Shown here: positions 1 through 24,338 of the stretch, in pieces | Position numbering within the stretch: the stretch's first letter is position 1 | Layout: each line of letters begins with the position of its first letter | Source of the DNA: a virus | Taxonomy: Duplodnaviria > Heunggongvirae > Uroviricota > Caudoviricetes | Strand: one strand, 5' to 3' | DNA: 37,585 bases | IMG/VR virus record: IMGVR_UViG_2541047802_000015 | Translations under genes and position numbers: made by a program | Notes under the pieces: model-generated | Database searches by the model: none | Seen by the model: only the letters and a program-made list of their open reading frames with translations | What the model was told of the DNA's origin: nothing

Positions 1-564
1 TTATCCCCACCGGTCCCATCTCACCAGGTTGTTGATGATAATTTTATTACTAAATTTGCAGGGCGGCCTGGTTTTGTAATCCCGGCTCAGTCCTCTGAAG
101 GCATTGATCTCCCCCCGCTCAAACAGCTCATCCTTATTCTGGTGCAGTTGTTTAAATGTGCTCAGAATGTTCGCTTCGCTGATTTCCGGAAAATTATCAT
201 ATTCCAGTGACCTGAACCCTGTATCACGTGCCTGTGCATCCATTAAGGAAAACATCCCGGAACGCTGCATCAGGTTACGCCAGATTTCGCGCTCAAGATT
301 CCGGGTAATGGCTTTCATTGCTGTTTCTGGTTTCTCCATCATCCAGCAACCACAGCGAAAATTCTGTTTCATCGCCCAGTCCGGGGCGGCTTTACCGCCA
401 ATATTTTCCGTCAGTGCTGAGATTTCTGTCAGTTGCCGGATAAGCGTGTCGATTTGCAGTAGTGTACTCTTTCGTACAGCCAGGATGTGTCTGATACTTG
501 TGGAACAGATAACGGCTGTATGCCCGTTGACCGCGTTCGGGTGGGGGATTGTGATATCTGACAT
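1..564 (-). CDS. hypothetical protein (187 aa), last gene of the island segment
   Basis: Complete ORF with stop at window edge; AAGGA-like RBS upstream of ATG at 564; no family recognised. Confidence 0.45.
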   Translation of the reverse strand: MSDITIPHPNAVNGHTAVICSTSIRHILAVRKSTLLQIDTLIRQLTEISALTENIGGKAAPDWAMKQNFRCGCWMMEKPETAMKAITRNLEREIWRNLMQRSGMFSLMDAQARDTGFRSLEYDNFPEISEANILSTFKQLHQNKDELFERGEINAFRGLSRDYKTRPPCKFSNKIIINNLVRWDRWG

Positions 565-584
565 TATGAGGTTTCCTTTCTGTT

Positions 585-619
585 TATAAACGAAAACGCC
601 AGCCCTGTTCAGGCTGGCG
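585..619 (-). terminator. putative intrinsic terminator after the cbtA-cluster operon
   Basis: 8-bp GC-rich stem (597-604 pairs with 612-619), 7-nt loop, followed on the minus-strand RNA by UUUUCGUUUAUA; lies just downstream of the ORF ending at 649. Confidence 0.55.
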
Positions 620-648
620 TCAGGAGAATGGAGTCTGGTGAGTGAGAT

Positions 649-1071
649 TCACCGGTTCTGGTGCATAAGTTGCAGTTGGTGCAGGGTACGGATATCCTCC
701 CTGGCCTGTTCAATACAGGGCAGCAGTGCTGCCGAATCCGTTTTATCCTCATCGTTGTCGAAAATAATTCCGGACCCGCAGTCGATATTGTCCTGCAGCC
801 ACGCAATGAGGATATCCAGCGCTGTTTCAGTGGTTAATGGCATCACGCTCTGTATCACTGTATTGTCTTCCGGCAACTGATGAGGGCTGGCATAAGTTGC
901 CGGTGTTTCGGTAGAGTCACGGTCATCCACCACGCGGAGTGAATCACCGTTTTCAGCGGCCTTATTAATCAGTTCAGCGAGATTAACACCATCAATGTCA
1001 ACGACAATTCGCCCCATATTCAGTGCCTGTACGTTAACGCTGTCGGCTTCCGGCGTCAGGGAAAGTTTCAT
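649..1071 (-). CDS. hypothetical protein downstream of cbtA (YeeW-position, acidic)
   Basis: 140-aa ORF; ATGA overlap with the cbtA-like stop suggests translational coupling; family not recognised. Confidence 0.5.
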   Translation of the reverse strand: MKLSLTPEADSVNVQALNMGRIVVDIDGVNLAELINKAAENGDSLRVVDDRDSTETPATYASPHQLPEDNTVIQSVMPLTTETALDILIAWLQDNIDCGSGIIFDNDEDKTDSAALLPCIEQAREDIRTLHQLQLMHQNR

Positions 1072-1445
1072 TGTTTCACCTCCGGGTGCTTACCCAGGAT
1101 AATATTATTTACCGTTCTGTAATTGTCGCGGGTCATCAGGCCGGTCGCCCTGCGAGCCCGGAGGATATCAATACTGTTTATTAACTGAGAACGGGTACAG
1201 GCGCTGAATCCCGGCTGGTCGGTACGTACCAGTGCGTATTTTTCAACGAGAAAGTTCACCGCATCGCACAGTGAAATGCCTGCCTCAATATGCTGCTCAA
1301 TCACACGTTCATCAGCGAACGGTGTGTCATTCAGCGTAAGGCCGTAGTGCTGATCCAGCAGTCGGGTGAGCAGTGTCTGCCAGATTTCAACCGGAGACGG
1401 GCGTGAACTGGCCGCCTGCCCGGGTAATACAGGTAATGTTTTCAT
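1068..1445 (-). CDS. cbtA: CbtA/YeeV-family type IV toxin (cytoskeleton-targeting)
   Basis: 125-aa protein beginning MKTLPVLPGQAASSRPSPVEIWQ, matching my memory of E. coli YeeV/YkfI/YpjF; sits directly downstream of its antitoxin. Confidence 0.8.
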   Translation of the reverse strand: MKTLPVLPGQAASSRPSPVEIWQTLLTRLLDQHYGLTLNDTPFADERVIEQHIEAGISLCDAVNFLVEKYALVRTDQPGFSACTRSQLINSIDILRARRATGLMTRDNYRTVNNIILGKHPEVKQ

Positions 1446-1533
1446 ACTGAAGATTTTCCTGATATGCAGAGATGAAAAATGGAAAAGTGGCGTGGTGAAA
1501 GCACCAGGCCGAGCAGAAGGTTATTCTGGAGAG

Positions 1534-1902
1534 TTACTTTTTCGTTTCGGGCGTCGGATAAACAGCCATATAAACGTAGCCACAACTGCCGAGGGTGTCG
1601 GCTTCGCAGGTCAGCCCTTTTGCATACAGCGTGACGGTATGCTGATGGCGGGGATTCAGTTCACCGCTGGTGAGCATGAGTTCCAGTTGTTTCATCAGCA
1701 GCGGAAAGGCCTGGTCCAGGTGGTACGAATCCGCGTCGCTGAACCGCCCTCTGATACCGGCGCGGTCGGCAAGGTAATGCAACCGGTTGCCTTCCTGTAC
1801 CAGACGGGCACCAAAACAGGGCGTCACGGTGCAGGGCAGTCCCCACCAGGTACGGTCGTTATTGTCGTCGGGAAGCGTTGTCCCGGGGAGTGTGTCTGAC
1901 AC
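1534..1902 (-). CDS. cbeA: CbeA/YeeU-family type IV antitoxin
   Basis: 122-aa protein beginning MSDTLPGTTLPDDN...WWGLPCTVTPCFGARLVQEGNRLHYLADRAG, matching the remembered YeeU/YfjZ family; paired with cbtA. Confidence 0.8.
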   Translation of the reverse strand: MSDTLPGTTLPDDNNDRTWWGLPCTVTPCFGARLVQEGNRLHYLADRAGIRGRFSDADSYHLDQAFPLLMKQLELMLTSGELNPRHQHTVTLYAKGLTCEADTLGSCGYVYMAVYPTPETKK

Positions 1903-1981
1903 GATAAAATCCTCACAGAAAATTGGTTAAGAATGGTCCGGTGGTGGCGATAATTCTGCTCTTCTGAATGCCCTTCCAGAC

Positions 1982-2203
1982 TCAGTTCAGGGTGACGCTC
2001 ATCAGCCGGACATACGGACCAAAACTGTCCTTCCGGCGTTCTGCAAACACGGCCAGCACACAGGGAATATCCTGTACTTCACGGCCGGTATATGTATCCG
2101 TGCTACCGTGCCAGCGGTATTTACCGGTACAGAACGGAAAAAGACGGGATGCAGGATGCTGACGGTGAATACGCATGGCTTCACCACGGGTGATGATTTT
2201 CAT
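1982..2203 (-). CDS. DUF987 (YeeT/YkfH-like) protein
   Basis: 73-aa protein MKIITRGEAMRIHRQHPASRLFPFCTGKYRWHG... typical of the small gene between radC-like and cbeA in CP4-type islands. Confidence 0.75.
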   Translation of the reverse strand: MKIITRGEAMRIHRQHPASRLFPFCTGKYRWHGSTDTYTGREVQDIPCVLAVFAERRKDSFGPYVRLMSVTLN

Positions 2204-2289
2204 GAGAATAGTCCTCCTGAATGTGAAAGTAAGAAACAGCTGAGAAAGAGAAACTGAAGTGATATGAAGGTGATTGTGACGGTGACGGG

Positions 2290-2766
2290 TTAAAGCAGAC
2301 CGTGTTCCGCAAAGGAGAAAACCTGGCTGCCACCGACTATCAGATGGTCCGGCACCCGGATATCCACCAGGCCCAGTGCCTGTACCAGACGTTCCGTGAT
2401 AAGGCGGTCTGCCTTGCTGGGTGTGACTTCACCGGACGGGTGATTGTGTGCCAGCACCACAGCAGCGGCATTGTGATACAGGGCGCGTTTAATCACTTCC
2501 CGGGGATGGACTTCCGTGCGGTTGATGGTGCCGGTGAAGAGGGTTTCACCGGCAATCAGCTGATTCTGGTTGTTCAGATACAGCACCCGGAACTCTTCCC
2601 GCTCCAGTCCCGCCATGTTCAGAATCAGCCATTCTCGTGCCGCACGGGTGGAGGTGAAGGCCACGCCGGGTTCATGAAGATGGCGGTCCAGGGTTTTCAG
2701 GGCCCGTTGAATGAGGCTGCGCTCACCGGGCGTCATTTCTCCGGGCAGAAAGGAAATCTGTTGCAT
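2290..2766 (-). CDS. RadC-like JAB-domain protein (YeeS/YkfG/YfjY family)
   Basis: 158 aa with the JAB metalloprotease motif HNHPSG and a conserved RadC-like C-terminal region. Confidence 0.8.
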   Translation of the reverse strand: MQQISFLPGEMTPGERSLIQRALKTLDRHLHEPGVAFTSTRAAREWLILNMAGLEREEFRVLYLNNQNQLIAGETLFTGTINRTEVHPREVIKRALYHNAAAVVLAHNHPSGEVTPSKADRLITERLVQALGLVDIRVPDHLIVGGSQVFSFAEHGLL

Positions 2767-2780
2767 TGTTCCGGCCCCTT

Positions 2781-3260
2781 TCAGTCAATGATGCGCATAA
2801 TGGCGCTGCATTCCGGATGCTGCAGGGCGTAATCCCGCAGCCGGTAATAATGGACCGTCATGGCATAACATTCCGTACGACAGGCATGATGGCTGTACGT
2901 CATCAGACAGGCGGCAATACCGGCAGCTTCCGGACTCATTTCAGCGCGGTTACCGTTCATGGCATTGAACAGTACCCATGTTTCGTCATCATCGTCATCC
3001 GGTTCAGGTGCCATAAATGCGCCACCGTTGTTCAGGGTGTACAGATTCCAGATGCCCCCGCAGTAGTCTTCGCACAGACGGTCCATCCAGCCGAAGACAC
3101 GGGGCTCCAGGGTCACCCACTGTGGAATGAGGCCAAAATGCTGCGGCCAGAAGCTGATACGTTGTTCATCAGGGACGGGAGTAGCAACCAGTTGGGGCTG
3201 GTTATTCCCTGGTGCTGTGGCTGAAGAAAGAGCAGTTGTGTTCTGAGAAACGATTTTCAT
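2781..3260 (-). CDS. antirestriction protein (KlcA/ArdB family)
   Basis: Acidic DDDDDE stretch and family-like core; start refined to the internal Met at 3260 (MKIVSQ...) preceded by AAGGA; the track ORF runs to 3317. Confidence 0.75.
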   Translation of the reverse strand: MKIVSQNTTALSSATAPGNNQPQLVATPVPDEQRISFWPQHFGLIPQWVTLEPRVFGWMDRLCEDYCGGIWNLYTLNNGGAFMAPEPDDDDDETWVLFNAMNGNRAEMSPEAAGIAACLMTYSHHACRTECYAMTVHYYRLRDYALQHPECSAIMRIID

Positions 3261-3312
3261 GAGTGAAATCCTTACAATGTGTATAAATGAGAGGAAATAA
3301 AGGCCGGGGGCT

Positions 3313-3359
3313 GACATGATCAGACATGAGATAAATGAAGGGGGATCCGTGAGATAAAT
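3313..3359. repeat. short direct repeats upstream of the klcA-like gene
   Basis: GACATGA at 3313 and 3323; TGAGATAAAT at 3327 and 3350; non-coding stretch between island genes and prophage genes. Confidence 0.4.
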
Positions 3360-3512
3360 AACGAATTGGAGTGGGTTAACATGGGTTCTGGTGAACAGAA
3401 CTGAAATTCTTTTCCGCTATACGATAGATAAGTCGGGCATTGAAATCATCCTTCCTGGCAACTTAGAATCGAGTTTGCTGAAACATGACCCGCAACAAAA
3501 AGGATGATTCCA

Positions 3513-3674
3513 ATGACTACTCAAAACAATAAGCATGATAGCCTGGATTACTCAGAAAAGCCCAAAAGCAAGCACATCGTGACGTTCGAGCGCGATTCCG
3601 GTAGAAAAGGAGAATCGTCTTCCTCTGCCAATAAAACCACTATGCCGGCAGCCCCTGCCCCAGGGAAAAAATAA
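3513..3674 (+). CDS. small hydrophilic ORF (53 aa), not in the ORF track
   Basis: ATG at 3513 preceded by AAGGA 8 nt upstream; in-frame to TAA at 3672-3674; below the track length cut-off; low-complexity Ser/Pro/Lys-rich product. Confidence 0.2.
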   Translation: MTTQNNKHDSLDYSEKPKSKHIVTFERDSGRKGESSSSANKTTMPAAPAPGKK

Positions 3675-3677
3675 ACA

Positions 3678-4310
3678 TCATTCATCGTTCGTTGCACGAA
3701 CGCGCCTGATCTCCACTCTGGCAATCTGATCTGCTGGAATATAGGTTGCCAGAGCTCCCCAGTACTTATCAACCACGCCTTTATACTCTTCCCATTCGTT
3801 ACTGCCTGAAGGGCTGCTGTGCGTGACGTAAAGAACCATATCGCCTTTATTCCCCAGGGTAAACGGACCGTTAGGCCACTCTTCAAAGTTCCCTGGCAGC
3901 CGTGACATCATACCGGAACCATCGCGAAGAATCACTCTGACCTCGGTAACGCTGAAGCCTGTTTGATCAAACATTGCCTGCCATGCTGAGCTGGTATCGT
4001 CAGACCATGAAATATCATTATTCCACAGTAATCTGTACATCCATTTGCGACCGTACCTGCGCCACCACGCACCGCATGTAACGGCACACAGAAGTGCTGG
4101 TGGTGTTGCCAGCCAGGCATTCAGACCTGCCCACATAACAGCCTGGTAAGCCATCATTGCTGTCAGGCCAAAAATCAGCGAAGAAAAAGTCACCTCAATG
4201 GGCTTGTGGTGATCCTTCAGTCCCACATTCGCAATAAAATACCCAATATAGCCACTGGTCAGGGTCACCAGTGTTGCCCATGGCAGATTTAACAACGAAA
4301 CGTCAAACAT
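3678..4310 (-). CDS. membrane protein of unknown function (3 predicted N-terminal TM helices plus soluble C-terminal domain)
   Basis: Start refined to the Met at 4310 (MFDVSLLNLPW...) with GGGAG RBS; hydrophobic N-terminal third; terminal gene of the leftward phage arm. Confidence 0.5.
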   Translation of the reverse strand: MFDVSLLNLPWATLVTLTSGYIGYFIANVGLKDHHKPIEVTFSSLIFGLTAMMAYQAVMWAGLNAWLATPPALLCAVTCGAWWRRYGRKWMYRLLWNNDISWSDDTSSAWQAMFDQTGFSVTEVRVILRDGSGMMSRLPGNFEEWPNGPFTLGNKGDMVLYVTHSSPSGSNEWEEYKGVVDKYWGALATYIPADQIARVEIRRVRATNDE

Positions 4311-4424
4311 ATTTTCTCCCTGCATCCTGAATACTAAAGAGAGAGCATAAAAAAAGCACGGTAAGGGGTCTACCGTGCTTTTATACAATAAGGAGATTTT
4401 TGAAAGGACTTTAACAAGCAGGAA

Positions 4425-4823
4425 TTATCTGGATTTGTTAACGTCTTTCGTCTCCTCTGGCAGATCTTCATCAAACAACCTGCCCTGCATCCGATCCAGT
4501 TCTTCTTTTCTGACCCGCTTAACCACGCTGTAGACCCACTGAAGCGAAACACCAAACTTGCGGGCCAGTTCGTGGTGGTTGCGTCCGTTAAACTCCCTGA
4601 AGATTTCCCGGTCGCGCTGACTGACCTTCCATACCATGCCCATCGGGAAATAAACGTTTTGCCCGCCCCAGACCTGCATCATTCGGTTCGCGACGGCCTG
4701 ACCAATCTGGTCGGCAATTGCGGGCTCAATATCAATAATCTCGCGAACGGTCTCAGAGGTATGCTGTGCCAGCTCCACCAGGAGTTCCGGCCCTTTACTT
4801 CGAAACTGATTCAGGTCGCTCAT
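4425..4823 (-). CDS. Mor/C-family transcriptional activator (candidate late-gene activator)
   Basis: 132 aa; C-terminal HTH region with DREIFREFNGRNHHELARKFGVSLQWVYSVV resembling the Mu Mor/C family. Confidence 0.65.
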   Translation of the reverse strand: MSDLNQFRSKGPELLVELAQHTSETVREIIDIEPAIADQIGQAVANRMMQVWGGQNVYFPMGMVWKVSQRDREIFREFNGRNHHELARKFGVSLQWVYSVVKRVRKEELDRMQGRLFDEDLPEETKDVNKSR

Positions 4824-13557: not shown

Positions 13558-13591
13558 CCGGAAAGCACTGTACTTTCCGGTTATGGCTTTT
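13558..13591 (+). terminator. putative intrinsic terminator between convergent repressor and dam genes
   Basis: CCGGAAAG/CTTTCCGG 8-bp stem with 7-nt loop, followed by TTATGGCTTTT on the plus strand. Confidence 0.45.
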
Positions 13592-14354
13592 AGAAATTGC
13601 AGATCACCAGCTCACGGCGTGGAGTTGATTTGCCTGCCAGACTGTAGTTGATGTTCACTGTCTGTATGTTCAGTCCAGTGAACACCTCGCGCATCTGCGG
13701 GATGTCGTTCACCGAAATTATCATCTTTCCTCTGATGCACCGGGCCAGCTCTGCCAGCCGCGAGTAGTTCCCTTCAGGAAAATCCACACCATAGCCTTCT
13801 GTACCCAGATACGGCGGGTCACAGTAGAACAGCGTGTGCGGACGGTCATAGCGCTCAATGCACTGTTGCCAGTCCATGTGTTCTATCACCGTTCTGGAAA
13901 GCCGCAGGTGTGCCGCTGACAGTTCTTCCTCGATACGCAGCAGGTTGAAGCGTGGCGGGGATGTGGTGGAGGTGCCGAAGCTGTGCTCTGCCACCTTGCC
14001 GCCAAACGCCTGCTTCTGGAGGTAGTAGAACCGTGCTGCACGCTGGATATCCGTCAGTGTTTCTGTCGGGGTGATCTGCAGCCATTTGTAGATCTGCCGG
14101 CTGACCAGCGCCCATTTGAACTGGCGGACAAATTCTTCCAGATGATGTTTTACCACCCGATACAGATTTACCAGTTCACCATTGATATCGTTAATGACTT
14201 CGAGCTTACCAGGTGTCTTAAGAAAATAGAGCGCTGCTGCGCCGCAGAACGGCTCCACGTAACATTCATGCGCCGGAAACAGCGGCAGGATGTGTTTTGC
14301 CAGGCGACGTTTGCCACCAATCCATGGAACGATGGGTAATGTCTGCATTTTCAT
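13590..14354 (-). CDS. dam: DNA adenine methyltransferase (Dam family, N6-adenine, D12 class)
   Basis: 254 aa; catalytic DPPY motif and N-terminal FxGxK-type AdoMet-binding region; no restriction endonuclease partner in the window. Confidence 0.85.
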   Translation of the reverse strand: MKMQTLPIVPWIGGKRRLAKHILPLFPAHECYVEPFCGAAALYFLKTPGKLEVINDINGELVNLYRVVKHHLEEFVRQFKWALVSRQIYKWLQITPTETLTDIQRAARFYYLQKQAFGGKVAEHSFGTSTTSPPRFNLLRIEEELSAAHLRLSRTVIEHMDWQQCIERYDRPHTLFYCDPPYLGTEGYGVDFPEGNYSRLAELARCIRGKMIISVNDIPQMREVFTGLNIQTVNINYSLAGKSTPRRELVICNF

Positions 14355-15139: not shown

Positions 15140-15688
15140 TTACGTGTTTAATGAACGTAAGTGAGGTTTATCCGCTGTCTGCATAATCCCGATAGCCAGT
15201 GCGAGGGGAAGCAATTCCGGGGAAACTCTTTCAAACAGCGATTCCCATTCTCCTCTCGCCATCACTCTGTCCAGCCCGCCCTCCAGCTGCATTTCAGCAA
15301 TCTTCCTGATTTCCCGGAACAACGCCGCTTTGATCTCTTCATGCTCAGCTTTATTTTCCGGTGTCAGAATGTATTCGTCGAAGAACCGGGGAGGCTGGTT
15401 AACGGGGGGCATGTTCACCGGGATGTGTTCCTGTATCCCGTACTCCGGGGCTGAAAAACATTTTGTTGTCTGACCGGTGAGTTTGCGTAACACCTTCATG
15501 AGTTGCTCCTGAAGCAGCTCATTCGTCCGACAGATACGCTCGTCGTCCACAACTGCGGCATCGACAATGACGCTTTTTCCAAATTCCTTTTTCACCATCT
15601 CTTTTATACGCGTCAGAACGTAACTTTTACCGCTGCCTACAGGCCCGGACACTCTGACGGTGATGGTCGGCTTCGGTGTGACTGTCAT
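15140..15688 (-). CDS. small P-loop NTPase/kinase-like protein (182 aa)
   Basis: Start refined to the Met at 15688 with AAGGAG RBS; Walker A GPVGSGKS near the N-terminus and Walker B-like VIVDAAVVDDE. Confidence 0.5.
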   Translation of the reverse strand: MTVTPKPTITVRVSGPVGSGKSYVLTRIKEMVKKEFGKSVIVDAAVVDDERICRTNELLQEQLMKVLRKLTGQTTKCFSAPEYGIQEHIPVNMPPVNQPPRFFDEYILTPENKAEHEEIKAALFREIRKIAEMQLEGGLDRVMARGEWESLFERVSPELLPLALAIGIMQTADKPHLRSLNT

Positions 15689-15747
15689 TCTGTATCTCCT
15701 TTGTGAGTGATCCAGCGTGTATTCTGCATACCCCGAACACGCCTCTC

Positions 15748-15792
15748 TCTTAACGCGCTTTAAAATCCTCCGCGCCACGCTTTTGCCATGCT
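15748..15792 (+). promoter_or_regulatory. putative late promoter upstream of the lysis cassette
   Basis: Conserved block TCTTAACGCGCTTTAAAATC, 19-nt spacer, then CATGCT; same architecture recurs at 23148, 29058 and 35148. Confidence 0.5.
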
Positions 15793-15819
15793 GTCTCCAC
15801 ACAACAAGGAGACATTTTC

Positions 15820-16170
15820 ATGAAACCATTCACTTCCCTTATCGTTGACGTACAAAAAACCCGCCTGCGTGGATGGCTTGTTGCGGCCGTGCTGCTGCTC
15901 CTCATCATCGCGCTGGTCTCACCCCAGCAGTTGCCGGTGGTGGTGTACAAGCTCTCTCTCATCTCCCTCGCCGCCGTGCTCGGCTACTGGCTGGACCGCT
16001 CACTCTTCCCGAAGGCCCGTCCGGGGCAGTACCTGAAGCATGACGAGCGCCTCATGGCTGAGGGGCGCTGGCCCGTACAGACCGGCCTTCACCTGGTGTT
16101 TTCTGCTGCGTTAATCCGCCGTGCACTGATTGTTGCAGCTGTCTGTCTGGCTGTTGCGATGGGGCTTTAA
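15820..16170 (+). CDS. putative holin / lysis membrane protein (first gene of the late arm)
   Basis: 116 aa with 2-3 hydrophobic helices; AAGGAGA RBS; immediately precedes the transglycosylase. Confidence 0.45.
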   Translation: MKPFTSLIVDVQKTRLRGWLVAAVLLLLIIALVSPQQLPVVVYKLSLISLAAVLGYWLDRSLFPKARPGQYLKHDERLMAEGRWPVQTGLHLVFSAALIRRALIVAAVCLAVAMGL

Positions 16171-16172
16171 TC

Positions 16173-16907
16173 ATGAACTGGCCACAGAGCACCTGGATTG
16201 TATGCATGTCCCTGAAACTGGCTTTCGAAGCCTTTCTGGTCTTCATCAGAACCGAACGCCTGTCAGTCCGTGTCGGGACCTTTCTGGTTCATATGGCATG
16301 GGTATTCTTTGTCGCAATGTTGCTCTGGTGTGGCGGCTTCTTCAGTCAGGCCCGCGCAGCGCAGCCTCCGCAGGCTGCGCTGCAGTATCGCGATGATGTG
16401 ATCCGTAATGCCCGGCTTGAATGGGGGCTGTCTGCGCCGGTGGCCGATTTCGCCGCGCAACTGCATCAGGAAAGCGGCTGGCGGACTGATGCGGTCTCGC
16501 CGGTGGGCGCTCAGGGGCTGGCGCAGTTTATGCCCGCCACCGCTGACTGGATAAGCCAGTTGATGCCGGCGTTGAGCAGTCGTGAGCCGTTTAATCCGGC
16601 ATGGGCCATCCGGGCGCTGGTCAGCTATGACCGCTGGCTGTGGCAGCGCATCAGCGCCGCCAGTGACTGCGAGCGTATGGCCATGACACTGTCGGGCTAT
16701 AACGGTGGTCTGGGTTGGGTACAACGGGACAGGCGGCTCGCATCACAGAAAGGTCTGGACAGCACCCGCTGGTTCGGACATGTCGCCACGGTGAATGCCG
16801 GACGCAATGCTGCCAGCTGGCGGGAGAACCGCCATTATCCGCAGCGCATCCTGCACGAACTGGCCCCCCGTTATCTGACATGGGGGGGCGGCAGCTGTGT
16901 GGACTAA
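16173..16907 (+). CDS. lytic transglycosylase endolysin (SLT domain) with N-terminal signal/SAR-like segment
   Basis: SLT motif region ESGWRTDAVSPVGAQGLAQFMP; hydrophobic WVFFVAMLLWCGGFF followed by ARA-AQ; true start may be the internal Met at about 16293. Confidence 0.75.
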   Translation: MNWPQSTWIVCMSLKLAFEAFLVFIRTERLSVRVGTFLVHMAWVFFVAMLLWCGGFFSQARAAQPPQAALQYRDDVIRNARLEWGLSAPVADFAAQLHQESGWRTDAVSPVGAQGLAQFMPATADWISQLMPALSSREPFNPAWAIRALVSYDRWLWQRISAASDCERMAMTLSGYNGGLGWVQRDRRLASQKGLDSTRWFGHVATVNAGRNAASWRENRHYPQRILHELAPRYLTWGGGSCVD

Positions 16908-17550
16908 CCTGCTAAAAAATCTGCCGTGGCGCAGTCTGCTGCTGGCAGTGCTCATAAATGCTTTTCTGATTGGACTTTATTACCTGGGCTACAAAAGCGG
17001 GCATGAAAACGCCACGCGCGACGGCGATAAGGCGATCAGTGAGTTGCAGTCAGCATTCGACACATACAAAACGGAGCAGGCAATGCTTGAGAACGCTGCA
17101 TTGCGAGCATGGGCAAAACGGTATCAGGAGCAGGTGGCCGCTGGGCAGCAGGCTGAGGCCGGTTATCTTGAGCAGATTGCTCAACTGGAGAGTCAGAACA
17201 AACAACTACAGGGGCAAATTAACGATGTCACACAGCGCTGGATTGATGAAAAAGGTAAGAGCCATCCCATTGAGTGCGTGTTTACTCGCGGTTTCGTGCG
17301 CCAGTACAACGCCGCACTCGGGTATGACAACGCATCCGTCGACACCGGTCATTCAGACTCAGTTGCCGCCACTGGCACCCGCTCTGGCACAGCGACCGGG
17401 CAACCTGAAACCACTGACACCCGGTTACGCGATTCGGGTGTCTCCCAGCGTGACGTTCTCGCCAACATCATCGACAACGCAGGACAATGTCGTCGCTGGC
17501 GGAACCAGATAAACGCGTTGCTGGATGAACGGGAAGGATTACAGAAATGA
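16897..17550 (+). CDS. i-spanin (Rz-like)
   Basis: 217 aa; N-terminal TM helix, then coiled-coil periplasmic domain; directly follows the endolysin and contains an embedded lipoprotein ORF. Confidence 0.6.
   Translation: MWTNLLKNLPWRSLLLAVLINAFLIGLYYLGYKSGHENATRDGDKAISELQSAFDTYKTEQAMLENAALRAWAKRYQEQVAAGQQAEAGYLEQIAQLESQNKQLQGQINDVTQRWIDEKGKSHPIECVFTRGFVRQYNAALGYDNASVDTGHSDSVAATGTRSGTATGQPETTDTRLRDSGVSQRDVLANIIDNAGQCRRWRNQINALLDEREGLQK
17246..17512 (+). CDS. o-spanin (Rz1-like lipoprotein) embedded in the +1 frame of the i-spanin gene
   Basis: 88 aa; signal peptide MKKVRAIPLSACLLAVSC with lipobox-like AVSC, then Pro-rich mature region. Confidence 0.6.
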   Translation: MKKVRAIPLSACLLAVSCASTTPHSGMTTHPSTPVIQTQLPPLAPALAQRPGNLKPLTPGYAIRVSPSVTFSPTSSTTQDNVVAGGTR

Positions 17551-23222: not shown

Positions 23223-24338
23223 ATGTCAGCCATTCACATTTTTAAAGCCGGTACTCATACCGATATGCACGGCAAAAAACTGCCGTTCACGCCAGACGAT
23301 CTTGCCGCCTGCGTGAAAGCCTATGACCCGTCCGTCCATGAAGCACCACTCGTGATTGGTCATCCCAGAACGGAAGACCCGGCGTGGGGCTGGGTGAAAG
23401 CCCTGTCGCTCAGCGGCGTCGATCTGATGGCAGAGCCTGCCCAGCTGGACCCGCAGTTTGCTGAGATGGTCACCGACGGACGATTCAAAAAAGTGTCTGC
23501 CTCTTTCTACCTCCCGGATTCACCGTCCAATCCGAAGCCCGGCGTGCTCTACCTGCGCCATGTGGGCTTTCTTGGGGCACAGCCACCTTCCGTCAAAGGA
23601 CTGAAACAGGTGTCCTTCAGTGAGCAGGAAGAAGGTGTGGTGGAGTTCGCCGACTGGCAGGCCATCACGAATGCCTCACTGTGGGGAAAGCTGCGCGATT
23701 TTCTGATCGCCCGCTTCAGTCTGGACGAAGCAGAAAAAGTTCTGCCGGAATGGCAGCTCAACAGTCTGCGCGAAGAGGCGTACCGCGACACACCGTCGCA
23801 GGATGCAGCAGGTGCGCAATTCAGTGAGACAGGCCAGGTGCCGTCTTCCGCAAGTAACGAGGAATCATCGATGACAAAAGAAGAGATTGAAGCCCTTCAG
23901 GCGGAGAACCGCCGCCTGAAGCAGCAGGCTGCTGATCGCGATGCGCGTGATGCACAGGTCAGACAGGAGCAACTGCATAAGGACAATGTGGCCTTTGCAG
24001 AAAAACTGGTCGCAGAGGGCCGTCTGGCTCCCCGCGCCTCCTCCGTGGTGGTTGCCCTGCTGGATTCCGTCGCCGGTGGCGACAAGCCGGTGGAGTTTGC
24101 TGAGGGGGAAAGCCGCACACCGCTGGCCACCGCCTTCCGTTCGCTGCTCTCCGACGGGGAGCCGGTGATGAACTTCGCCGAACAGGCCACGAAGGAGCGT
24201 GTCGGCGACACGGTGAAAGTGGATGTGACGGAGTTTGCAGAAGCCGACCCTGACCGTCTGGCACTGCACCAGAAGGCTGTGGAACTGTCGAAAAAAGAAG
24301 GCATCAGCTATGAGGCTGCTGTCACACGCTGCCTGTAA
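23223..24338 (+). CDS. head protease/scaffold protein (Mu I-like)
   Basis: 371 aa; N-terminal region resembling the Mu I family and an acidic/coiled-coil C-terminal scaffold-like region. Confidence 0.75.
   Translation: MSAIHIFKAGTHTDMHGKKLPFTPDDLAACVKAYDPSVHEAPLVIGHPRTEDPAWGWVKALSLSGVDLMAEPAQLDPQFAEMVTDGRFKKVSASFYLPDSPSNPKPGVLYLRHVGFLGAQPPSVKGLKQVSFSEQEEGVVEFADWQAITNASLWGKLRDFLIARFSLDEAEKVLPEWQLNSLREEAYRDTPSQDAAGAQFSETGQVPSSASNEESSMTKEEIEALQAENRRLKQQAADRDARDAQVRQEQLHKDNVAFAEKLVAEGRLAPRASSVVVALLDSVAGGDKPVEFAEGESRTPLATAFRSLLSDGEPVMNFAEQATKERVGDTVKVDVTEFAEADPDRLALHQKAVELSKKEGISYEAAVTRCL

Follow-up and report, generated by a model that had tools for sequence, protein, structure and literature searches.

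The 37,585-nucleotide Caudoviricetes record IMGVR_UViG_2541047802_000015 of IMG/VR (the whole stretch is called the window below) contains a BcepMu-like transposable prophage, and close to the left end of this prophage lies a gene for a membrane protein of 210 aa (3678-4310, minus strand). Comparison with related prophages indicates that the gene belongs to an accessory cassette, in which it forms a conserved two-gene module with a convergent gene for a small proline-rich microprotein (3513-3674, plus strand). The membrane protein is predicted to sit in the inner membrane with three transmembrane (TM) helices and to carry a cytoplasmic small beta-barrel of Sm/SH3-like type. We propose, at a probability of roughly 0.4, that the pair is an exclusion or abortive-infection membrane module that is expressed in the lysogen and regulated by the microprotein. 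Prophage morons are already known; the conserved pairing of membrane protein and microprotein and its link to the family DUF6338 are new here.

Accessory cassette at the left end of the prophage

The left end of the prophage (3317-3356) starts with 5'-TG. In 114 complete Escherichia coli genomes the same DNA is found beside different host genes, and the similarity always begins at 3317. Since this start is shared despite the varied flanks, 3317 can be taken as the point where a transposable BcepMu-like prophage begins on its left side. At this end TGAGATAAAT occurs twice in direct orientation (3327-3336 and 3350-3359), and both copies are probable transposase-binding sites. The membrane-protein gene is located about 360 bp inside the end, directly downstream of the gene for a Mor-family late activator (4425-4823, minus strand; PF08765, E value 1e-43), which is the last gene of the early operon and lies outside the cassette. 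The gemA gene precedes mor, and further upstream are genes for Gam, a B-like ATPase and a transposase that shares 68% identity with its BcepMu counterpart. The initial annotation of this DNA, made from the sequence alone, had placed the membrane-protein gene after a Mor-like gene and near the prophage end, in agreement with the PF08765 match and with the mapped end. It had also described the gene as the last one of the arm; this holds as far as its position after mor is concerned, but a convergent open reading frame (ORF) of 53 aa lies between it and the end.

The cassette covers about 3357 to 4424. BcepMu has no membrane-protein gene; its last gene is mor, 365 bp short of the end. The prophage of E. 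coli AR_0104, whose Mor and GemA are 96% identical to those of the window, has no cassette, and 163 bp separate the end of its mor from that of the prophage; PhiKM, an isolated phage whose transposase is 98.8% identical, is likewise cassette-less. Only the terminal 40 bp of the end in the window are common to the AR_0104 prophage and PhiKM (82.5%), and homology with the cassette-less prophages resumes at 4465, with a recombination junction in the last 13 or so codons of mor. Among 5426 complete E. coli genomes, Mor/GemA were found in 640 and the cassette in 132, and most of the E. coli prophages with 95-99% identical Mor/GemA (about 80%) are without it, their ends lying some 160 bp past mor. 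The GC content of the cassette (3357-4424) is 0.468, versus 0.543 for the early arm and 0.562 for the late arm. The gene thus displays two features of morons, namely presence or absence among close relatives and a deviating base composition, and its homologues occupy classical moron positions in unrelated prophages. Taken together with the conserved terminator described below, these comparisons suggest that the prophage gained the cassette in the interval from mor to its left end, and that the cassette is accessory, rather than part of the core phage genes. The moron proposed by the initial annotation is therefore well supported, while its view of a single gene is not, as the gene is paired with a second one in a conserved module.

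The phage has its own lysis cassette at 15820-17550, separate from the membrane-protein gene. It includes genes for a Holin_2-3 protein (PF13272, E value 1.7e-41) and an SLT endolysin (15820-16907), and the adjoining ORF, at the position expected for a spanin, gave only a sub-threshold match to OmpH.

A 114-aa ORF that follows mor in PhiKM was considered as alternative cargo and rejected, as the partial record that contains it is end-joined and the ORF is situated past the end of the phage. This record, PQ738613.1, joins the tail-fibre end of PhiKM straight to the left end. The PhiKM ORF annotated as "Fe2+ ABC transporter permease protein 2" (positions 4201-4617 of our locus L003) is located outside the left end and overlaps the tail-fibre gene; its annotation is probably an artefact.

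The membrane protein and its predicted fold

The ORF at 3678-4310 is a genuine gene. It starts with ATG, preceded at a distance of 5 nt by a Shine-Dalgarno (SD) sequence GGGAG (4320-4316), and the identical ORF is present in RefSeq as WP_000460689.1, labelled "hypothetical protein". The AlphaFold2 model, built with 37 homologues, has a mean pLDDT (predicted local distance difference test) of 86. It shows helices at residues 11-27, 37-60 and 65-97 and a domain at residues 109-205 that consists of a short helix followed by five beta-strands. The mean number of lysine and arginine residues over the 37 homologues is 0.3 for the N-terminus, 1.8 for loop 1, 0.1 for loop 2 and 5.5 for the 17 residues after the third TM helix. 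According to the positive-inside rule, these counts place the N-terminus in the periplasm and the C-terminal domain in the cytoplasm (N-out/C-in). The initial annotation of a 210-aa product with about three N-terminal TM helices and a soluble C-terminal domain is thus upheld by the ORF call, the model and the charge distribution.

The three TM helices are predicted to be moderately hydrophobic, and in the model the barrel is carried on a long extension of the third one. The C-terminal domain is modelled with the N-terminal helix and the strongly bent five-stranded antiparallel sheet that are characteristic of the Sm/LSm fold, and this confident model assigns the cytoplasmic domain to the Sm/LSm small beta-barrels. 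Unlike Sm, LSm and Hfq proteins, it has no similarity to the Sm motif, is tethered to the membrane and contains a 20-residue insertion (about residues 167-188); no match to the Pfam LSM family was found for the protein. MscS-type channels have three TM helices and then an Sm-like beta domain; in the class I holin S105 of phage lambda, three TM helices are oriented N-out/C-in. The membrane protein has the same number of TM helices and the same topology as both, and its small barrel directly follows the third helix, as in MscS. It has no MS_channel domain. It is also unlike a holin in having 210 aa and a folded domain and in lacking any holin match in Pfam, the topology being the only point of agreement.

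Database searches placed the protein in a family whose members are uncharacterised. Residues 1-210 aligned with positions 1-210 of PHROG 12870, of unknown function (E value 6.3e-134). The protein had no Pfam match at E ≤ 1 and none in NCBIfam; PADLOC matched neither the membrane protein nor the microprotein, and a sequence search of PDB with the family profile returned nothing below an E value of 0.6. Pfam DUF6338 (PF19865) was matched weakly by 20 of 38 homologues (best E value 1.4e-6), and precomputed PF19865 matches, marked "faint", are available for the homologues P0050 to P0052, P0054 and P0060. The family is best described, from these profile matches, as a divergent sister group of DUF6338. 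A profile search of 1.84 billion representative proteins yielded 521 clusters, nearly all with members of 196-260 aa, and about 20 positions are invariant in the family, including S101, D104, D157, Y161, T163, H164 and R202. No characterised member was present among the homologues found, and a literature search on DUF6338 found it mentioned only in one proteomics study (PMC10433244). No homology to structural or lysis proteins, which would have spoken against a moron, was detected, and the gene is absent from most relatives.

Two further candidates were judged to be noise of TM composition, namely Cap15_TM (one of 38 homologues, E value 0.32) and Cpta_toxin (three of 38, E value 0.037). No cyclase gene, as would accompany a Cap15-type effector of a cyclic-oligonucleotide-based anti-phage signalling system (CBASS), was present in any neighbourhood examined.

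The microprotein partner

The microprotein gene encodes 53 aa (MTTQNNKHDSLDYSEKPKSKHIVTFERDSGRKGESSSSANKTTMPAAPAPGKK; RefSeq WP_001571575.1) and ends three bases past the stop codon of the membrane-protein gene on the opposite strand, so that the two genes stand tail-to-tail. Its product is hydrophilic, with a proline-rich tail that ends in lysine (...MPAAPAPGKK). AlphaFold2 gave no secondary structure for it (predicted template modelling score 0.16), and it is predicted to be disordered.

Matches to the microprotein were obtained by tblastn in diverged Mu-like loci. For every retrieved homologue of the membrane protein, the downstream DNA was inspected. In 25 distinct contexts it contains an ORF of 33-66 aa that runs towards the membrane-protein gene and stops within about 20 nt of the stop codon of the latter. 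These include prophages of Citrobacter, Serratia, Salmonella and Symbiopectobacterium, alphaproteobacterial loci of Afipia, Bradyrhizobium, Devosia and Rhizobiaceae, a locus of the sphingomonad Allosphingosinicella, and several IMG/VR phage contigs. The partners end in PPPSPKKK, PPAPKKK, PPPPKK, PPPPAPSRK and similar tails. At least three prolines in the last 12 residues together with K or R in the last four were found in 21 of the 25 partners, compared with 4.2% of 3413 background ORFs; this tail definition was chosen after the data had been seen, and the 25 loci are not fully independent. The partner ORF is also predicted by independent gene callers. In the cyanophage Ssp-JY41, which is counted among the 25 contexts and whose membrane protein is only 29% identical, a partner ending in …VAPPPPKR lies at the far end of the linear record, which is the expected place if the record is read as a circle.

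A joint alignment of the microproteins revealed a common K-x-[FY]-x-x-x-T core, with K18 and T24 near-invariant. The homology of microproteins across clades is likely, a claim based on position, size, composition, tail motif and this joint alignment. On these comparative grounds, the membrane-protein gene and the microprotein gene constitute a conserved two-gene module. Among the longer members of the membrane-protein family, no fusion with the microprotein was found, their extensions being unrelated.

Variants of the partner were also noted. In E. coli SCU-105 the tail of the partner is acidic (…DDAPPPRD) rather than basic, and this partner is absent from the RefSeq annotation. In genomes of insect symbionts (L009, L010, L018 and L044, from Pantoea persica, Arsenophonus, Phlomobacter and Symbiopectobacterium), the Mu-like prophage is without the partner ORF; the membrane-protein gene is intact in three of these genomes, two of them with a 5-aa deletion after the third TM helix, and pseudogenised in Phlomobacter.

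Independent evidence that partners of this kind are made as proteins comes from another organism. A digest-free proteomics study of Pseudomonas stutzeri identified three unannotated microproteins whose genes immediately follow one for a DUF6338 protein; 44-114 peptide-spectrum matches were obtained, and coverage reached up to 100% (PMC10433244). Two of them are MVSSPGSGVQTNGANPPAPANVRPAMAPTAPPPPKK and …PSAPPPPPKKGG, and the authors held these microproteins to be confined to P. stutzeri (PMC10433244). Their tails (PPPPKK or PPxPKK) are the same as those of the partners found here. The DUF6338 protein concerned, Pstu14405_RS12030, resembles the membrane protein of the window in being a membrane protein of about 200 aa with N-terminal TM helices and small proline-rich neighbours. 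The arrangement differs, as a single convergent microprotein gene is present here and three co-directional ones there, and antisense overlap is consequently not universal in the pairing. The comparison gives the family a name but explains nothing. In P. stutzeri CP036186.1 (about 2649363-2667116), the DUF6338 and microprotein genes lie about 14 kb from genes annotated as SNF2 helicase/PLD and DUF1156. This combination is typical of DISARM-type defence loci.

Transcription signals

The microprotein gene is preceded by a promoter-like site of sigma-70 type (3440-3469, plus strand; TTGAAA-18-TAGAAT), which scored 10 of 12 matches in a consensus scan. Both hexamers are kept in the Citrobacter, Serratia, Symbiopectobacterium and Salmonella loci. 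A 16-nt inverted repeat (3438-3453/3500-3515, plus strand) pairs the -35 segment with the SD sequence and ATG of the microprotein gene, and compensatory changes preserve it in other genera (L005, L006, L008, L011 and L050; TTGTAA/TTACAA in L050). As judged from this pairing, the ribosome-binding site of the microprotein gene would be sequestered in transcripts that enter from outside and free in those that start at its own promoter. In the transposase gene of IS10, such a mechanism is known as "fold-back inhibition", which the repeat resembles. A terminator-like hairpin (3384-3402, plus strand), found by consensus scan only, faces inward just inside the prophage end and may block read-through from the host DNA.

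On the other side of the cassette, a hairpin at 4352-4382 forms the terminator of the mor operon, with 13 G+C-rich pairs, a T-run on one side and an A-run on the other. A hairpin about 40 nt from the start codon was found in 11 diverged loci, with two-sided changes in five of seven pairs. This conservation indicates that the early operon is insulated from the cassette. No terminator was detected between the microprotein gene and the membrane-protein gene by the terminator scan, so that the microprotein transcript should run antisense across the whole membrane-protein gene as far as 4352-4382. Given the A-run on its far side, the same hairpin may also stop transcription of the plus strand, and it probably ends this antisense transcript.

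The leader of the membrane-protein gene (4311-4351, minus strand) contains a candidate -10 element, TATGCT (4349-4344). The candidate -35 element, TAGACC (4372-4367), is separated from it by a 17-nt spacer and lies in the loop of the hairpin. A TAT[TG]CT sequence just past the T-run recurs in loci with differing hairpins.

Other candidate signals were discarded. If the hairpin upstream of the membrane-protein gene doubled as a Mor site shared with late promoters, its dyad, GCACGGTA-N6-TACCGTGC, should recur in the window; the only match is at 23267 and has three mismatches, a score equalled in 13 of 100 shuffles. The 9-mer CTCTCTCTT occurs in both the late promoter region and the leader of the gene; the other loci do not conserve it. 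Rfam gave only sub-threshold chance matches on the terminator when 3200-4500 was searched.

Distribution of the module

In Enterobacterales, the cassette always follows mor at the end of a Mu-like prophage, even where Mor is only 32-38% identical, and an extra small gene is sometimes inserted between mor and the membrane-protein gene. Such ORFs of 78-95 aa were noted in E. coli SCU-105 (L066, 2461-3436) and Serratia marcescens (L070, 6690-7805). In unrelated prophages, the module was found flanked by head-completion genes, or with tape-measure genes on one side and tail genes on the other, and a homologue is also present in a P2-like prophage. In Afipia and Bradyrhizobium, homologues lie in islands beside serine recombinases. 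The cyanophage homologue has a type IIG restriction-modification enzyme as a neighbour and, by its sequence, likely a BrnT-type toxin gene as a second one; the Allosphingosinicella homologue stands beside a DUF4411 and M78 peptidase pair. These few neighbourhoods are suggestive of accessory or defence functions. Overall, the range of settings suggests that the module is mobile among phages and islands.

Proposed function and alternatives

Small beta-barrels of the SH3/Sm type frequently have proline-rich peptides as ligands or build up rings. The ligands and rings usual for such barrels are the reason why docking of the tail and controlled oligomerisation are proposed here. In the lysogen, small amounts of the membrane protein would be produced and the microprotein would restrain it: the proline-rich basic tail of the microprotein would dock on the small barrel, by analogy with the ligands of SH3 domains. 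Convergent antisense transcription would provide a second layer of control. If this control were upset, for instance through phage infection, oligomerisation of the barrel domains could follow, and the assembled TM bundles might then cause a lesion or a block in the membrane by which the infection would be excluded or aborted. While the anatomy of the cassette, its accessory status, the conservation of the module and the fold were observed, expression in the lysogen, the contact of barrel and tail, oligomerisation and an anti-phage phenotype are what we infer.

Exclusion or abortive infection is the likeliest benefit, considering that the cassette is found at moron positions in many temperate phages. 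HK97 gp15, P22 SieA and T4 Imm are classical phage membrane exclusion proteins of moron type. The membrane-protein gene is similar to the exclusion morons as a patchily distributed extra gene of atypical GC content with putative transcription signals of its own, an inner-membrane product and carriage by temperate phages. They differ from this gene in being small and solitary, with neither a folded cytoplasmic barrel nor a partner microprotein, and no relationship to them in sequence or fold is known.

Several observations weigh against this proposal. No homology to a characterised exclusion, abortive-infection, defence or toxin protein was found in Pfam, NCBIfam, PADLOC or PDB. The putative promoter of the membrane-protein gene (TAGACC-17-TATGCT) is weak and was not called by the consensus scan, and the microprotein tail PAAPAPGKK does not fit the strict PxxPx[KR] pattern of SH3 ligands. 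Microprotein hidden Markov models built from a single clade gave no significant match in the other (enterobacterial versus alphaproteobacterial; best E value 0.015). The partner is missing beside intact membrane-protein genes in L009, L010, L044 and L049, which comprise an Arsenophonus, Symbiopectobacterium and Pantoea persica lineage and one P2-like locus, and the microprotein is therefore not indispensable. Finally, synteny with mor is stable in Enterobacterales, with protein identities of 57-87% like those of backbone genes, which would also fit a role in the life cycle of the phage itself. Superinfection exclusion as such is neither supported nor excluded by the present evidence.

That stable synteny is one of the observations that a membrane function in the lytic cycle (holin-like, antiholin or in the timing of lysis) would account for, with expression driven either by transcripts reading through out of the early operon or by a Mor-dependent promoter, in a place corresponding to the middle operon of Mu. 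In Mu, the Pm-C arrangement follows mor, and the position directly after mor mirrors it; the N-out/C-in topology with three TM helices is also that of class I holins, and the TM part gave weak matches to viral holins in Foldseek (E value about 0.04). We nevertheless consider such a function very improbable, since a Holin_2-3 protein, an SLT endolysin and an ORF at the spanin position are encoded elsewhere (15820-17550), about 80% of the sister prophages as well as BcepMu and the isolated phage PhiKM do without the gene, mor and the gene are kept apart by a conserved terminator, the late promoter has no second copy of the hairpin dyad, and the same cassette occurs in non-phage islands. The tail-to-tail genes with no terminator between them, whose transcripts must overlap, point in another direction, to an addiction module of toxin-antitoxin type, in which the membrane protein would be the toxin, the convergent gene would supply the antidote as antisense RNA, microprotein or both, and the pair would stabilise its carrier. 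The convergent type I toxin-antitoxin loci txpA/RatA and bsrG/SR4 overlap at their 3' ends. As in these loci, a membrane-protein gene is faced by a strongly promoted convergent transcript and no terminator stands between; in contrast to them, the putative toxin has 210 aa and a folded domain, and the convergent gene is conserved as a protein. The promoter of the small gene looks much stronger than that of the membrane-protein gene, the pair travels as a compact unit among mobile elements, and three of 38 homologues matched Cpta_toxin weakly (E value 0.037), likely through TM composition only. Such a module is still unlikely in our view: several genomes keep an intact membrane-protein gene without a partner, the P. 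stutzeri microprotein genes and the DUF6338 gene are co-directional, which means that antisense control does not apply generally, known toxins showed no similarity, and the size and folded domain are unlike those of type I toxins.

The microprotein could instead be the active product of the pair. It would then be a proline-rich antimicrobial-like or signalling peptide, which an oligomeric protein with three TM helices would export, anchor or give immunity to, so that the cassette would serve lysogenic conversion apart from exclusion. The association of DUF6338 proteins with microproteins spans very distant taxa, the microproteins are abundant in P. stutzeri, and the tandem triplication of their genes resembles the amplification of a product. 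DUF6338 is also present in biosynthetic gene clusters, and proline-rich peptides can be antimicrobial (PMC10433244). This explanation appears quite unlikely, however, as the cassette encodes no leader or signal sequence and no modification or processing genes, the P. stutzeri microproteins were detected in cell material (membrane fractions not covered), the barrel domain is cytoplasmic, and the microprotein sequences are poorly conserved beyond composition and tail.

Host DNA and other genes of the window

The host DNA to the left of the prophage (1-3316) corresponds to a CP4-type island. It encodes DUF4942 (1-564), DUF5983 (649-1071), the toxin CbtA (1068-1445), the antitoxin CbeA (1534-1902), DUF987 (1982-2203), RadC (2290-2766) and an antirestriction protein (2781-3317), the likely start of which (MKIVSQ) is near 3258. 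The insertion site of the prophage is about 60 bp upstream of the antirestriction gene, whose promoter may thereby have been severed from it.

Two genes between the immunity region and the late operon are likely further cargo. One (13590-14354, minus strand) encodes a D12-class N6-adenine DNA methyltransferase (PF02086, E value 1e-28) and the other (15140-15802, minus strand) a 220-aa P-loop protein with weak, sub-threshold Pfam matches of AAA type (best E value 3.5e-4).

Significance

A broader and more speculative idea, which we regard as improbable at present, is that DUF6338-type proteins and "PPxPKK" microproteins make up a widespread, undescribed two-component anti-phage system of temperate phages and islands, in which the disordered microprotein would gate a barrel oligomer that kills or seals the cell. 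If true, this would establish a new family of anti-phage defence and give a function to a class of microproteins so far only detected by mass spectrometry. If the pairing is functional, it would offer a first handle on DUF6338, a family of more than 500 clusters at 50% identity with no known role, as well as on proline-rich microproteins that one proteomics study had judged to be species-specific.

The cassette also provides a natural experiment. Hundreds of sequenced E. coli strains carry the same prophage with or without about 1 kb of additional DNA, and these strains allow phage resistance, prophage stability and lysis to be compared directly. If no phenotype were found, the cassette would be an ordinary uncharacterised moron. 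If it is an exclusion or abortive-infection module, it would represent a new family, composed of a microprotein and a membrane-tethered Sm/SH3-like barrel.

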